Origin: Bacillota bacterium
Lineage (GTDB): Bacteria > Bacillota > Sulfobacillia > JAJYWN01 > JAJZPE01
Length of the DNA: 64,000 bases
Direction of reading: 5' to 3'
Assembly: GCA_021787335.1 (NCBI GenBank)
Contig: JAJYMC010000040.1
Location: 8,314 to 72,313 of the forward strand
Under the pieces are notes generated by a model. It searched no databases, was not told the DNA's origin, and was given only the letters and a program-made list of their open reading frames with translations. This document shows, one piece after another, positions 34,512 through 39,845 of the stretch. The first letter of the stretch is position 1. Each line of letters opens with the position of its first letter. Made by a program: the position numbers and the translations under genes.

Positions 34512-35207
34512 CTAGCGTGGGGTCTTTTTGCCCGGCCTCGACGAAATCAGCTTGATGATGCCGCCCGGTCCGAAACTCTCGACCGAGTCGATGGTCATCC
34601 CCGCCAGTCGCACGTTCTCGACCGTCCGGCGGTTGATGTTGGCCCCCACCACCCGGACGACGAGGGGGTTCATCCGGTCCATGATCGACCCGGCCAGCCC
34701 CAGGGCCCGGACGTGCTCAAGCATGATGACCCGTCCGTCGGGGCGGCAGACCCTGGCGACTTCTCTGAGCCCGGCCACCGGGTCGGGCACCGAGCAGAAG
34801 ACGAAGGTGTCGACCACGGTGTCGAAGCTGTCATCCGGGAAGGGCAGGGCCTGGGCGTCGGCCAGGAGCAGGCGGACGTCCACCTGAGTCGGGGTCGGGG
34901 CCGGGGGCGTGGCCTTCGTCGCAGGCTGAGCCGCGTCCAGCCGCCGCTTCGCCCGTTCGAGCATCTTCGGGGAGACGTCGACCGCCGTCACCCGGGTCCC
35001 TGGCCGGTAGAAGGGGATGTTCCTGCCGGTTCCCACGCCGACCTCGAGGACCTCGCCGCTCGTCTGATCGAAAATCTTCCTGCGCCATTCCGGCCGCCCC
35101 ATGCGGTCAAAGAAGTCATAGATGGCGGAAATGCGATCGTAGCGCCGGCTGACGGGGCGGCTTGAAGGGAGGACCCGGTCTTCGGTGGCCCCCGTCATCG
35201 GGCTCAC
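34512..35207 (-). CDS. Class I SAM-dependent methyltransferase
   Basis: Motif I VLEVGVGTGRN. There is a 4-nt overlap with the upstream gene. Confidence 0.8.
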   Translation of the reverse strand: MSPMTGATEDRVLPSSRPVSRRYDRISAIYDFFDRMGRPEWRRKIFDQTSGEVLEVGVGTGRNIPFYRPGTRVTAVDVSPKMLERAKRRLDAAQPATKATPPAPTPTQVDVRLLLADAQALPFPDDSFDTVVDTFVFCSVPDPVAGLREVARVCRPDGRVIMLEHVRALGLAGSIMDRMNPLVVRVVGANINRRTVENVRLAGMTIDSVESFGPGGIIKLISSRPGKKTPR

Positions 35208-35509
35208 TCCTTCCGGGCCAGGCTCTGCTGGGCGTTCGGCGGCGCGCTCAGGTCAGTCGAGCAGGACGGGCAGTAGCGCCAGTCGGGACTGACCGGCTGG
35301 CCGCATTTCGGGCACGTCCGCCGGAGGGTCTGGCCGCAGTGCGGACAGATTTGGAAGTTCTCCTGGATCGTGGCCCCGCAGTGCTGGCAGCGCGCATTCT
35401 CCCATGGCCAGTTGCGCGGGTGGTGATAGCCGCCGGACGTGCGGGCGGCGTTGTCCTCCATGACCCGCCAGATCAGCCAGGCCCCCAGCACCAGGAAGAG
35501 GAGCATCAT
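35204..35509 (-). CDS. Membrane-anchored double zinc-ribbon protein
   Basis: N-terminal TM helix followed by CQHCG..CPHCG and CPKCG..CPSC pairs. Confidence 0.65.
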   Translation of the reverse strand: MMLLFLVLGAWLIWRVMEDNAARTSGGYHHPRNWPWENARCQHCGATIQENFQICPHCGQTLRRTCPKCGQPVSPDWRYCPSCSTDLSAPPNAQQSLARKE

Positions 35510-35943
35510 CTCGGTTCACCTCGCCTTTCGGACCGCGGTCCGCCGCCGGACCCGGCCAGAGTCTGGCCGCAATAGGGACAGACCTGCCAGCCCGGCTCGG
35601 TCGGCCGCCCGCAATTGGGGCAACGCGAGTCGTGGCGATACCCGTGGCCGGCGCCGTCGTGGTGATACCCGCGGCCGGCGCCGTGGCGGTTGCCGATGAG
35701 CAGGTAGATGACCAGAACCACGAGGCCGATGATGAGGATGGTCCAGAGCGGGTTCCATAGACCGTAACCGTAACTTCCCATGAAGCCGCCGGGGCCGTGC
35801 ATCCAGTACATCATCCCGCCCATGGGGCCATAGAAGCCTCTTTGCCAATAGCCGGAGTAGGCCCAGTAGCCGAAGAGGTTGTACCCGACCACCGCCAGGA
35901 CCAGGACGGCGAGGGCGGCCCAGATCCACCAATTACGCCTCAC
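35506..35943 (-). CDS. Two-TM protein with Gly/Tyr/Met-rich loop, His-rich repeat and C-terminal zinc ribbon
   Basis: Order is TM1, loop GYWQRGFYGPMGGMMYWMHGPGGFMGSYGYG, TM2, HGAGRGYHHDGAGHGYRHD, then CPNCG..CPYCG. Confidence 0.65.
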   Translation of the reverse strand: MRRNWWIWAALAVLVLAVVGYNLFGYWAYSGYWQRGFYGPMGGMMYWMHGPGGFMGSYGYGLWNPLWTILIIGLVVLVIYLLIGNRHGAGRGYHHDGAGHGYRHDSRCPNCGRPTEPGWQVCPYCGQTLAGSGGGPRSERRGEPR

Positions 35944-37185: not shown

Positions 37186-38607
37186 TCAAGCCTCGAGCCC
37201 ATACTTCTGCACCCGGTAAATCAGCGTCTGGCGGCTGATGCCGAGAAGGCGGGCCGCCTGGGTCTGGTTCCCGCCGGCCTTGGCCAGCGCGCGGCGCAGC
37301 AGTTCGCGCTCGACCTCCTCGAGGGACAGGCCCTCGTCGGGGATGTCGGGCAACTCGAACCGGCCCGCGGGCTTCGGGGCCTCGCCGTCGCCGGCCTCGC
37401 CGGCGCCAACGGCCTCGGCACCCGGCCCGTCATGCCCGCCGACCACCTCCGCCGGCAGGTCCTCGAGGCCGATGACCGCTCCCCCGCCGACCACCAGGGC
37501 GCGCTCGACGGCGTTCTGCAGCTCGCGCACGTTCCCCGGCCAGTCGTAGTCGACCATGGCCCGCATGGCCTCCGGGGCCACGTTGGGCGCCGCTCCGGCC
37601 GGGCCGGCCGCGCTCTTTACCTCAATGAAGTGCCGGACGAGGAGCGGGATGTCCGTCTTCCGCTCGCGCAGGGCCGGCAGGACGATGGGCACGACGTGCA
37701 GGCGGTAATAAAGGTCTTCGCGGAACGCGCCGGCCTCGACGGCCGCCTTCAGGTCGCGGTTGGTGGCGGCGATGAGCCGGACGTCGACCCGTACCGCCTC
37801 GCGCCCCCCGACCCGCTGGAACTCGCGCTCCTCGATCACCCTGAGCAGCTTGGCCTGCAGGGAGGGGCTCATCTCCCCCAGTTCATCGAGGAAAAGCGTC
37901 CCGCCGTCGGCCTGCTCGAAGCGCCCGGCGCGCCTGGCCGTGGCCCCGGTGAAGGCGCCCTTCTCGTGGCCGAAGAGTTCGTCCTCGAGGAGCGTCTCGG
38001 GCAGGGCGGCGCAGTTGACGGCGACGAACGGCCGCTCGGCCCGCGGCCCGCGCCGGTGGATGGCCTTGGCGATTAGTTCCTTGCCCGTGCCGCTCTCGCC
38101 ATAGATGATGGCGTTGGCCGTCGTCTCGGCCAGCCGATCGACCAGGGCCAGGACCTTGCCCAGGGCCGCGCTCTCGCCGACGATGTCGCCGTACCCGCCG
38201 CGCCGGTCGAGCTCATCGCGGAGTCGCACGACCTCGGCCTCGAGGCGGCGGAGGTCCAGGGCCTTGCCTACGAGGACGCTCATCTCGTCGAGGTCGAAGG
38301 GCTTCTGGACATAGTCGTAGGCGCCTTCCTTCATCGCCTTGAGGGCTGTCTCGACGGCCCCGTGGGCGGTGACCATGATCACCGGCCGGCGCGGGTCGGC
38401 CGCCCGCAGGCGCTTCAGGACCTCAATGCCGTCCAGGTCGGGCAGCCTGAGGTCGAGGATGACAAGATCGGGGCGCTCGCGCGCGGCGAGGTCCAGGCCC
38501 TCGGCGCCGGTGGCCCCGGTGACCACGCGGTGCCCCTCGGCGGACAGGCCGCGCTGGAGGGCCCAGCGGAGGTTCTTCTCGTCATCGACGACCAGGATAG
38601 CGGCCAT
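37186..38607 (-). CDS. Sigma-54-dependent response regulator (NtrC/AtoC/ZraR family)
   Basis: REC domain (ILVVDDE...D at LVILDLRLPD), AAA+ domain with GESGTGKE and GAFTGA (EKGAFTGA), and a C-terminal Fis-type HTH (QTQAARLLGISRQTL). Confidence 0.92.
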   Translation of the reverse strand: MAAILVVDDEKNLRWALQRGLSAEGHRVVTGATGAEGLDLAARERPDLVILDLRLPDLDGIEVLKRLRAADPRRPVIMVTAHGAVETALKAMKEGAYDYVQKPFDLDEMSVLVGKALDLRRLEAEVVRLRDELDRRGGYGDIVGESAALGKVLALVDRLAETTANAIIYGESGTGKELIAKAIHRRGPRAERPFVAVNCAALPETLLEDELFGHEKGAFTGATARRAGRFEQADGGTLFLDELGEMSPSLQAKLLRVIEEREFQRVGGREAVRVDVRLIAATNRDLKAAVEAGAFREDLYYRLHVVPIVLPALRERKTDIPLLVRHFIEVKSAAGPAGAAPNVAPEAMRAMVDYDWPGNVRELQNAVERALVVGGGAVIGLEDLPAEVVGGHDGPGAEAVGAGEAGDGEAPKPAGRFELPDIPDEGLSLEEVERELLRRALAKAGGNQTQAARLLGISRQTLIYRVQKYGLEA

Positions 38608-38663
38608 GGCTCAACCTCCAAAGGAAAGGGCCGTCCCAAGGGACGGCTCAAGGTGCGACCGGC

Positions 38664-39845
38664 TCATCGCGCGACCGGCAGGCTGACCCGGAAGGTCGTC
38701 CCCTGCGGCCCCGACTCGACCTCGATGAAACCGCCGTGGGCATCGACGATGCGGTGGGCGACGGCGAGGCCGAGCCCGGTCCCCGTGGGCTTCGTCGTGT
38801 AGAAGGGGTCGAAGATGCGGGCCAGGTCGGGCTCGGGGATCCCCGGGCCGGTGTCGGCCACGACGAAGGTGACATAACCGGCATCGTCGTGGCTACGCCG
38901 GACGCCGACGTCGCGGTTCCGCCGGGCGCCGATGGTCAGCTCGCCGCCATTGGGCATCGCCTCGACGGCGTTGATGATCAGGTTCAGCAGTACCTGGCGC
39001 AGTTGGGAGTCATCGGCCGGCACCGGCGGCAGATCCTCCTCGATCTCCACCTCGACCGTCACGCGGTGTTCGGGTAGGAACCTCCCAAGCATCGCCAGGG
39101 TGGCCTCGATCGTCTCATGCGGGTCGACGTCGGCGAAGGCCGGCTCGGACGGGCGGCCGAACCCGATGAACTGCGTCAGGCGCGCGTTCACCCGGTCGCA
39201 TTCGTCCCTGATGACCCGGGTGAATTCGGCGACGTGCTCGTCCCCGGCGAACTCGCGCTCCATGACCTGGACCGTGGTCCTGACCACGCTGAGAGGGTTC
39301 TTTATCTCGTGGGCCACGCCCGCCACGAGCTGGCCCAGGGCGGCCAGCTTATCCGCCCGCCGGACCTGCTCCTCGAGCTCCTTCTTCTCGCTCAGGCGGC
39401 GTTCCAGCTCGCGGTTCATCTCCTCGATGCGGCCTGCCCGCCGCTCCAGCTCCTCGCGGGCCTCCCGCTGTTCCTCGGCGTAGAGCAGAGCCTCGCGGCG
39501 CCGCCGCCAGCCGACCTCCTGCAACAGCCCGGCCATCCAACCGGCCCCGTTGAGGATGAGGACGTCGACGGCGGCCGGCAGGACCCCGTGTTCCGGCCGC
39601 CCGATGAAGAGGACCACCCACGGGGCGTAGAGCAACGAGGCGACGATGGGCGCGACGACCCCACCGGCCAGCCCGAAGCGCAGCCCGGCGTAGATGACCG
39701 GCAGATAATAGGCCGCCCGGTACAACGCGTGGTAGGCGAGCTGCTCGGGCGGGGTGGCGTAATGGAGATAGGTGATGACGGCCAGGGCCGCGCCGATGAG
39801 CGCGATATCGAGGGCGCGGCCCGGACCGAAGGCGTTCTTGCGCAT
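38664..39845 (-). CDS. Sensor histidine kinase with membrane-embedded N-terminal region (about 4 TM, no large external loop)
   Basis: H-box AHEIKNPL plus N/G boxes (NAVEAM, DTGPGI, GTGLGLAV). The ATG at 39845 was chosen, and the longer track ORF runs antisense-free through ccmD/ccmC in another frame. Confidence 0.85.
   Translation of the reverse strand: MRKNAFGPGRALDIALIGAALAVITYLHYATPPEQLAYHALYRAAYYLPVIYAGLRFGLAGGVVAPIVASLLYAPWVVLFIGRPEHGVLPAAVDVLILNGAGWMAGLLQEVGWRRRREALLYAEEQREAREELERRAGRIEEMNRELERRLSEKKELEEQVRRADKLAALGQLVAGVAHEIKNPLSVVRTTVQVMEREFAGDEHVAEFTRVIRDECDRVNARLTQFIGFGRPSEPAFADVDPHETIEATLAMLGRFLPEHRVTVEVEIEEDLPPVPADDSQLRQVLLNLIINAVEAMPNGGELTIGARRNRDVGVRRSHDDAGYVTFVVADTGPGIPEPDLARIFDPFYTTKPTGTGLGLAVAHRIVDAHGGFIEVESGPQGTTFRVSLPVAR

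Follow-up and report, generated by a model that had tools for sequence, protein, structure and literature searches.

A predicted sigma-54-dependent two-component switch for a small operon of Gly/Tyr/Met-rich envelope proteins in Bacillota

We analysed a 64-kb stretch of DNA from a Bacillota bacterium (contig JAJYMC010000040.1; hereafter the window), in which a sensor histidine kinase and its sigma-54-dependent partner regulator very probably switch on an adjacent operon of membrane-anchored Gly/Tyr/Met-rich proteins, as judged from the sequence and its conservation. The operon comprises the genes for three proteins that we call P3, P4 and P5, followed in the window by a gene for a class I S-adenosylmethionine (SAM) methyltransferase, and all genes of the module lie on the minus strand (Table 1). 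The proposed regulatory logic, in which the kinase would act through an NtrC-type activator, two upstream sites and a sigma-54 promoter on P3, P4 and P5, is well supported. We lean somewhat towards the fuller proposal that this switch serves a small envelope operon and has soft-metal-type stress at the outer face of the membrane as its likeliest signal. In broader terms, we infer that the module probably responds to copper-type metal or envelope stress.

To compare the module within its clade, we used seven loci: the window and the loci L003, L004, L088, L089, L090 and L091. The gene order kinase, regulator, P3, P4, P5 is kept in all seven, with P3 identity to the window protein as low as 51% (L090 63%, L089 60%, L004 56%, L003 52%, L088 51% and L091 51%). 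The region between the regulator gene and P3 contains a -24/-12 promoter, TGGCACGGTCTATGCT, that differs from the consensus in one position (TTGC begins with A in place of T) and lies 70 nt upstream of the ATG at 36935. When both strands of the 64 kb were searched with the pattern TGGCAC-N5-WTGCW, this was the sole match; 100 shuffles gave none, and none is expected by chance. Furthermore, TGGCACG-N4-ATGC is invariant in the seven loci, where the intergenic regions are otherwise about 67% identical. Further upstream, two 16-bp direct repeats with the consensus TGTyTGTTTTGCnnCA are near-invariant in all seven loci; site 1 starts at -135 to -137 and site 2 at -101 to -104 from TGGCAC. In the window the two sites are spaced 33 bp, or about three helical turns, and the sequence between them varies among the loci; site 2 reads TGT-N10-ACA in four of the seven. 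An invariant promoter with repeats at fixed distances thus matches the expectation for an enhancer-dependent sigma-54 promoter that is served by the adjacent activator. A first-pass annotation of the window, made from the sequence alone, had predicted this -24/-12 element, its distance to an ATG preceded by a ribosome-binding site and, more generally, a sigma-54 promoter with upstream activator sites that drives a compact envelope operon. The element and its distance are as described, and phylogenetic footprinting across the seven loci supports the promoter with its upstream sites. The annotation had, however, placed the enhancer in an inverted repeat. This repeat exists (11-nt arms at 37099-37109 and 37131-37141, 91% complementary) and flanks site 2, but its sequence is not conserved in the relatives, whereas the two direct repeats are; we have thus discarded it as a conserved enhancer.

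The operon appears as a unit of its own in the same region. Directly 3' of the regulator stop codon lies a terminator-like hairpin, kept in five of the seven loci, which separates the regulator unit from the target operon. The GC-rich hairpin in the 5' untranslated region (UTR) of the operon is present in all aligned relatives; it corresponds to no known RNA element, as the Rfam scan of the window matched elsewhere only. We placed the start of P3 at the ATG 36935, which has a ribosome-binding site and is also where an identical database protein of 326 aa starts. We did not accept the alternative start GTG 36992, since transcription is predicted to begin at that very point.

The regulator has the receiver domain, the AAA+ domain with GAFTGA and the C-terminal Fis-type helix-turn-helix (HTH) domain that define the NtrC class. 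Pfam finds Response_reg (PF00072, E 5e-30), Sigma54_activat (PF00158, E 4e-72), AAA_lid_14 (PF25601) and HTH_8 (PF02954, E 4e-17), and the GAFTGA motif is intact at residue 217. Orthologues that are 77-84% identical occupy the same position in L003, L004 and L091. For the kinase, Pfam calls HisKA and HATPase_c, with no domain in residues 1-150, and the hydropathy of this part reveals closely spaced hydrophobic segments only and no long loop. Among the homologues of the N-terminus collected by an exhaustive HMMER search, 40 of 50 match the four-transmembrane domain DUF4118 (PF13493, best 2.6e-10), which the window kinase itself matches only weakly (E 1.4). This membrane domain is common to 571 representative clusters and is highly conserved in four relatives; in the window clade it has no outer loop and contains no Met. 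The domain composition of the regulator and the membrane-embedded kinase N-terminus without a sizeable outer loop had both been read from the sequence at first pass, and both agree with these results. Across the 50 homologues, His28, His39, Tyr46 and Pro49 of the membrane domain (39468-39845) are invariant (consensus ITxLHYxT...H..YRRLYYLPII).

A ZraSR, AtoSC or NtrBC identity of the pair was ruled out on the NCBIfam equivalog cut-offs: the regulator scores 514.6 against a cut-off of 714 for AtoC and 409 against 760 for ZraR, and the kinase scores 248 against 646 for AtoS and 196 against 479 for ZraS, where the AtoS and ZraS matches are confined to the C-terminal half of the protein. Another terminator-like hairpin (38630-38647, minus strand; 7-bp stem with 6 GC pairs and a C/T-rich tail) lies in the 56 bp that separate the kinase and regulator genes and may modulate the ratio of kinase to regulator expression.

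Table 1. Genes and sequence elements of the module, in order of transcription
Feature	Position	Strand	Description
Sensor histidine kinase	38664-39845	minus	divergent DUF4118 four-transmembrane N-terminus, coiled coil, HisKA, HATPase_c
NtrC-type response regulator (bacterial enhancer-binding protein)	37186-38607	minus	receiver (REC), AAA+ with GAFTGA, Fis-type HTH
Terminator-like hairpin with T-run	37158-37182	minus	9-bp stem, 7 GC pairs, TGTTTGTTTT tail
Candidate activator site 1	37142-37157	minus	TGTTTGTTTTGCGCCA; starts 137 bp upstream of TGGCAC
Candidate activator site 2	37109-37124	minus	TGCTTGTTTTGCGACA; starts 104 bp upstream of TGGCAC
Conserved block AACCGCGyC	37051-37060	minus	between activator sites and promoter
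Sigma-54 -24/-12 promoter	37005-37020	minus	TGGCACGGTCTATGCT; predicted transcription start near 36994
Leader hairpin	36958-36978	minus	GC-rich, GCCGGC...GCCGGC; in 5' UTR just before ribosome-binding site
Ribosome-binding site	36944-36950	minus	GAGGGGG; precedes ATG 36935
P3, 326 aa	35955-36935	minus	anchor, Gly/Tyr/Met-rich disordered region, PepSY-like domain 1, G/Y-rich linker, PepSY-like domain 2
P4, 145 aa	35506-35943	minus	transmembrane helix 1, outer loop GFYGPMGGMMYWMHGPGG, transmembrane helix 2, His-rich stretch (GYHH), cytoplasmic zinc ribbon
P5, 101 aa	35204-35509	minus	N-terminal hydrophobic helix, GYHH motif, double zinc ribbon
Class I SAM methyltransferase (Methyltransf_11)	34512-35207	minus	optional accessory

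The first gene of the operon connects the module to a wider family. P3 itself has no match in Pfam or NCBIfam, and its isolated domains find nothing in Pfam even at E <= 10. Among its homologues, however, 30 of 76 match PF03413 (best 8e-10) and 18 match YPEB_PepSY1-2. The earlier description of P3 as PepSY-like is thus upheld for the family, but not by a domain match in P3 itself. We found 183 database relatives, and a species-level genome scan detected a family member in at least 480 species genomes. The hosts include the Bacillota Desulfosporosinus, Desulfitobacterium, Vallitalea and Wukongibacter as well as Chloroflexota, Dormibacterota, Rokubacteria, Bathyarchaeia, Caldarchaeum and Methanoperedens. 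By homology, P3 is a member of a large uncharacterised PepSY-related family and not an orphan.

The members of this family share an architecture of an anchor, GYGMMGG-type repeats, domain 1, a Met/Gly linker and domain 2. Their most conserved motif, E-x-G-P-N-M-M-W-N-x-K-Y-G, stands at the end of domain 1, with MHW for MMW in the window clade (domain 1 of P3 ends in EMGLAMHWDVKYG), and domain 2 has the motif FYGYY...DGK...SVNGYTGQVW. The family medians are 6.4% Met, five MM dipeptides and three GMMG motifs. P3 contains GYGMMGG three times; its repeat region is made of uncharged Gly/Tyr sequence with six Met in 74 residues and almost no acidic residues. AlphaFold models both domains with confidence (predicted local distance difference test, pLDDT, >90), each as a helix and four strands, and leaves the repeats disordered. 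Comparison of the family profile to the sequences in the Protein Data Bank (PDB) returned only a low-complexity chance match, and short Foldseek matches of P3 to the cereblon domain were dismissed as noise. The many family members in archaea and Chloroflexota, together with the lack of a sleB-like cluster among the neighbours, also ruled out a sporulation role like that of YpeB. Homologues of P3 are currently annotated as "hypothetical", "peptidase" or "PepSY domain-containing", and would be better described as two-component-associated envelope proteins.

P4 and P5 are small transmembrane zinc-ribbon proteins. The genes are tightly packed, with 11 nt between P3 and P4 and overlaps of 4 nt between P4 and P5 (35506-35509) and, given a GTG start, between P5 and the methyltransferase (35204-35207). 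The outer loop of P4 is invariant, including PMGGMMYWMH. P4 shares sequence of the GYG/MMGG type with P3, where the P4 version is GPMGGMMYWMHGPGG, and it shares the GYHH motif with P5. By sequence, P4 is restricted to the window clade (just five proteins among 5.8 billion, plus one metagenome locus), and similar architectures elsewhere were found by pattern only. Proteins of this architecture, with a Met/Gly loop and a CPxCGR...W..CPxCG ribbon, directly adjoin family genes in the distant Chloroflexi loci L037 and L056. P5 is kept in all seven clade loci, and a P5-like gene is present in L037. The packing with its two overlaps, the transmembrane zinc-ribbon proteins and SAM methyltransferase and the sequence type common to P3 and P4 had been noted at first pass, and the coordinates, Pfam and the sequence comparison agree with it.

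The idea of a conserved four-gene unit did not hold, since the methyltransferase is present in the window, L089 and L090 and absent from L003, L004, L088 and L091. Beyond the clade, a methyltransferase of this family lies close to the P3-family gene in five further loci (L055, L059 and L062 among them), which include a Dehalococcoidia, Wukongibacter and Methanoperedens. The methyltransferase is thus a recurrent but dispensable accessory. It reaches no NCBIfam equivalog and remains generic. We also considered an anti-phage defence system and ruled it out with the PADLOC models, which gave only generic AAA+ and methyltransferase matches, with none at all for P3 and no meaningful one for P4 or P5.

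We analysed the neighbourhoods of the family genes with two approaches: tblastn of a protein panel against all loci, where counts out of 80 refer to the loci from the species-level genome scan, and assumption-free clustering of the open reading frames (ORFs) within 5 kb of the family gene in 90 loci. With the clustering, response regulators were the neighbours in 53 of 90 loci and histidine kinases in 46. In 36 of the 80 genome-scan loci, the PepSY gene is followed directly downstream on the same strand, after a gap of about 130-180 bp, by genes for an OmpR-type regulator and a HAMP kinase. A gene of PepSY type thus adjoins a two-component system in all seven clade loci and recurrently across taxa. 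The window differs from the common form in which an OmpR-type regulator is paired with an outer-sensor kinase, as its regulator is NtrC-type and its DUF4118 kinase has no outer loop; a sigma-54 regulator adjoins the family gene in the window clade only. Further recurrent neighbours are P1B-type ATPase or HMA genes (15 loci by clustering; 23 of 80 by tblastn, within 10 kb), ArsR-family regulators (15 loci, in Bathyarchaeia 63-91 bp downstream of the family gene), small Met/Gly-rich membrane proteins of SHOCT type (16 loci), ABC ATPases (11 loci, with a YHS domain in the cluster representative) and CsoR. For instance, the family gene is divergent from csoR-copA-copZ in Desulfosporosinus orientis and lies between pspA and an HMA gene in Paradesulfitobacterium (L006).

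The kinases that partner the family elsewhere have a sensor of a particular kind. Among 43 partner kinases with two recognisable transmembrane helices, 37 carry at least three Met in the outer loop. A typical loop has about 35 residues, starts with RHM and contains 7-9 Met (e.g. RHMNGMMDGGMGMGMGMNNSMGQLYVDFRASFN); the Met share of these loops is 20-25%, and kinases with long loops carry Met/Gly inserts. In the window clade, the element of two transmembrane helices with a Met loop between them sits on P4 and not on the kinase. We found no description of the RHM Met-loop sensor type in the searchable literature. Met-loop kinases occur among the loci L009-L087, e.g. at 4415-5548 in L040. In L037, from a groundwater Chloroflexi metagenome-assembled genome (MAG), an operon divergent from the P3-family gene (7134-9419, minus strand) encodes, in this order, a P4-like protein (transmembrane helix, Met/Gly loop, transmembrane helix, zinc ribbon), a double zinc-ribbon protein, PspA/IM30, a 220-aa protein that is also next to PspA in L006, a transmembrane zinc-ribbon protein, an OmpR-type regulator and a kinase.

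From these observations, we propose the following mechanism. The wholly membrane-embedded DUF4118-type kinase would phosphorylate the NtrC-type regulator, which would bind the two direct repeats of 16 bp, some 100 and 135 bp ahead of the -24/-12 promoter, and spend ATP to open the sigma-54 promoter complex, so that P3, P4 and P5 (and in some strains the methyltransferase) are transcribed. P3 would be a membrane-anchored tandem PepSY-like protein that exposes disordered Gly/Tyr/Met repeats on the outer face, P4 would show its invariant Met/His/Trp loop outside and its zinc ribbon inside the cell, and P5 would supply a second membrane-tethered cytoplasmic zinc ribbon. Motifs of Met, His and Trp on outer-face segments form the Cu(I)/Ag(I) chemistry of CusF, SilE, PcoE and Ctr1-type motifs. 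The candidate metal ligands of the module and its family are likewise motifs: PMGGMMYWMH in P4, MHW or MMW in P3 and its family, and the Met-rich kinase loops. The likeliest signal would be stress at the outer face of the membrane, with Cu(I)/Ag(I)-type soft metals as its most probable source and P3 and P4 as outer-face binders or buffers. As the kinase has no outer domain, P3 and P4 may also be accessory sensors that report to it through the membrane. The domain content, the promoter with its conservation, the family membership and the neighbourhood statistics are direct results, whereas the signal, the metal binding and the feedback on the kinase are parts that we infer. Soft-metal stress is our best single guess because the Met/His/Trp chemistry, the metal-homeostasis neighbours of the family and the csoR-copA-copZ unit of the window all point to it.

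Several known systems resemble the module in part. In Vibrio cholerae, the PepSY protein of DbfQRS controls the kinase and the system reports the state of the envelope (PMC12714742). PepSY genes next to two-component systems are widespread and non-random, with more than 60-fold enrichment, and such modules include BqsPQRS of P. aeruginosa (PMC12714742). Our module is similar to DbfQRS in that a PepSY-type extracytoplasmic protein is encoded beside a kinase and regulator pair, and most P3-family loci have the dbfQRS-like order of PepSY gene, regulator and kinase in one unit. However, DbfQ is small and soluble, has one PepSY domain and binds to a sensor domain in the periplasm, whereas P3 is anchored and has tandem domains and long Gly/Tyr/Met repeats. 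Furthermore, the DbfQRS regulator is OmpR-type, whereas in the window a sigma-54 activator is encoded in a unit of its own upstream, the kinase has no outer domain and there are two additional transmembrane zinc-ribbon proteins. A closer architecture is that of UipA from Microbacterium (Gallois et al. 2021; PDB 7ATH), which is reported to have a transmembrane helix and a tandem PepSY unit outside the cell, to bind metal, to be strongly induced by metal and to have UipRS encoded directly upstream (PMC8963506, PMC9988556). Like UipA, P3 would be a single-pass tandem-PepSY protein beside a two-component system, with the PepSY assignment made through the family and the metal link proposed here. 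UipA is reported to bind the hard cations UO2 2+ and Fe3+ via an acidic surface, whereas P3 has Met/His/Trp motifs; P3 matches 7ATH neither in sequence nor in Foldseek.

The control circuit resembles that of ZraPSR, a sigma-54-dependent system for envelope and zinc stress in Enterobacteria (PMC4987338). There, a two-component pair with an NtrC-type sigma-54 activator drives the adjacent gene for an extracytoplasmic metal-linked stress protein, which in turn acts back on the kinase. In NCBIfam, the window pair has ZraS and ZraR among its best matches, though far below the cut-offs. Unlike the window kinase, ZraS has a periplasmic sensor domain, and ZraP belongs to the CpxP/Spy family, which is unrelated to P3. 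The sigma-54-dependent membrane stress response proposed here is also similar to PspF-PspA, and PspA is encoded beside P3-family genes in L006 and L037. PspF, however, has no receiver domain and is controlled by the binding of PspA and not by a kinase, and the window contains no PspA. In CusRS and SilRS, two-component systems control outer-compartment binders of soft metals that use Met, His and the cation-pi contact of Trp, and among these binders SilE and PcoE act as disordered sponges rich in Met and His. The window module is unrelated in sequence to these systems with their binders CusF, SilE and PcoE, and the regulator class, kinase sensor and folds differ; we take the likeness as a lead only.

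A number of observations weigh against the proposed metal-responsive sigma-54 switch. A search for an RpoN box that covered the window and the fetched loci came back empty. The PepSY fold of P3 was not confirmed by Foldseek of the full-length protein and the ectodomain against the PDB (best E 0.42 and 0.49). P3 of the window clade has 3.4% Met, which is below the family median, and its repeats are mostly Gly/Tyr. The P1B ATPase frequency of 23/80 is a raw count with no genome-wide background and shows no distance decay within 10 kb, and the PspA genes beside family genes point equally to non-metal membrane stress. By NCBIfam, the partner two-component systems are not of the CusRS/CopRS subfamily, a type that we thus could not support; their best matches are generic (PhoB/MtrA/WalK-like). 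Lastly, without the window clade, transmembrane zinc-ribbon ORFs are no denser near family genes than in the distal flanks, and the P4-like neighbours in L037 and L056 are anecdotal.

We regard non-metal stress as a serious rival because of the DbfQRS signal, the PspA neighbours and the mostly Gly/Tyr repeats of P3 in the window. In this alternative, the wiring would be the same, but the signal would be general membrane or envelope integrity, as in DbfQRS, Psp, Lia and Cpx, and the Gly/Tyr/Met segments would serve as flexible spacers or for self-association and not as ligand sites. For DbfQRS, the signal is membrane integrity and not Fe (PMC12714742), the sensor of the window kinase is purely intramembrane, the P3 repeats are uncharged and poor in Met, and the partner two-component systems resemble WalK, BaeS and MtrB types. 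General envelope stress would, however, leave unexplained why the loops of the partner kinases contain 20-25% Met, why the MMW/MHW motif and the P4 loop are kept and why P1B ATPases, HMA, CsoR, ArsR and YHS recur as neighbours; we consider it possible but doubtful. Met and Tyr are indeed enriched together in P3, P4, the partner kinase loops and the SHOCT-type neighbours, and the window contains thiol-redox genes, so that the outer segments could instead be sacrificial antioxidants (sinks forming Met sulfoxide or dityrosine) induced by oxidants or hypochlorite. This idea is built on composition; Msr genes are missing from the assumption-free neighbour clusters, and the genes that do recur are those of metal homeostasis. 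We thus think it quite improbable.

Two further alternatives concern the wiring itself. The kinase gene starts 29 bp past a ccmD-like gene, an arrangement kept in L003, L004, L088 and L091. The pair could thus be a regulator of cytochrome c maturation that is co-transcribed with ccmABCD and senses heme, apocytochrome or the thiol-redox state, with P3 to P5 as lineage-specific helpers of System I. Another transmembrane zinc-ribbon protein inside the ccm cluster and the TlpA-like and DsbD/CcdA genes nearby fit such a role. But the link is found within one clade only, where synteny by common descent may account for it. Hundreds of genomes carry a P3-family gene without ccm genes nearby, CcmC is found in 1 of 87 loci, which is one of the window clade, and P3 to P5 do not resemble CcmG, CcmH or CcmI in Pfam or NCBIfam. 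This makes the ccm role unlikely. The first-pass annotation had suggested a metal, heme or redox context in the envelope; its metal part is supported by the family-wide neighbourhoods, whereas its heme and ccm part traces to lineage-specific synteny only. The -24/-12 match could also be fortuitous, with the operon transcribed from a different promoter or as an extension of the regulator transcript, and the lack of an RpoN box in the window and the fetched loci would agree with this. A chance origin is nonetheless very hard to reconcile with a unique match where none is expected, its invariance in seven diverged intergenic regions at fixed spacing to two conserved repeats, the intact GAFTGA activator encoded next door and the terminator ahead of the operon, and we consider it highly improbable.

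DbfQRS and UipA are precedents for the two halves of the soft-metal proposal, a PepSY protein that regulates the neighbouring kinase and a tandem-PepSY protein that binds metal. The searchable literature does not describe this combination and has no paper that links PepSY with Met-rich sequences, copper or sigma-54, and none of the target proteins has a characterised relative. Pfam, NCBIfam and PADLOC likewise place no product in a characterised pathway, as had been anticipated. The claim of a new system with an unrecognised regulon is thus right for the products but too broad, as the first gene belongs to a widespread PepSY-related family that is partnered by two-component systems. The module is a lineage-specific variant of the theme of PepSY and two-component system and not a new category. 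What is new is the wiring with sigma-54 and DUF4118 and the zinc-ribbon protein with a detached Met loop; at the family level, the Met-loop kinases are new, and so is the wide spread of the family over bacteria and archaea. Tentatively, an unrecognised system for the sensing and buffering of soft metals (Cu/Ag) may be made up of P3, P4, the Met-loop kinases and the small proteins of SHOCT type, with a detached loop in the window clade. If so, this system would be spread over Chloroflexota, Bacillota, Verrucomicrobiota, Bathyarchaeia and Methanoperedens and would use disordered Met/Gly(/Tyr)-rich segments on the outer face. The ligand loop would then be modular: usually in the kinase, here on a protein with two transmembrane helices and a zinc ribbon that signals to a loop-less DUF4118 kinase and a sigma-54 activator. 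This would connect an unstudied PepSY-related family, the Met-loop kinases and small Met/Gly-rich membrane proteins, so far unlinked, and provide a testable candidate for the sensing of copper-type metal or envelope damage in Chloroflexota, Bathyarchaeia and high-GC Bacillota, which have few characterised regulators. The window clade would be a natural "split" version with sensor loop and kinase on separate proteins, useful to dissect the signalling between accessory membrane proteins and DUF4118 kinases, few of whose signals are known.

Lastly, we describe the surroundings of the module. Upstream, in this high-GC Bacillota MAG lineage, lie System I ccm genes (39875-46366, minus strand), comprising ccmE, ccmF, ccmA, ccmB, ccmC and the ccmD-like gene. 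Between ccmF and ccmA, where genes of the ccmG/H type might be expected, we find the transmembrane zinc-ribbon protein (43289-43795) and a 349-aa protein with two transmembrane helices and no Pfam match (42235-43284); this arrangement is kept in L003 and L088. The csoR-copA-copZ copper efflux unit (46719-49927, minus strand) is directly upstream of ccmE, 10 kb upstream in the window, and beyond it are the TlpA-like (50192-50752) and DsbD/CcdA-like (50794-51642) genes. On the other side, the operon is followed by a block (33100-34404, minus strand) that encodes a zinc ribbon of FmdB type, a small thioredoxin-like protein related to DUF1462, DUF302, Lgt and a triple-HTH_3 protein and is conserved in the clade members (L003, L004, L088 and L091); the FmdB gene has its own sigma-70-like promoter (TTGACA-18-TAGAAT, 34452-34423). 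The only Rfam match in the window is a cyclic di-GMP-I riboswitch (RF01051, 61959-62056, minus strand; 76.9 bits, E 2e-13) upstream of an ORF of 209 aa (61139-61768).

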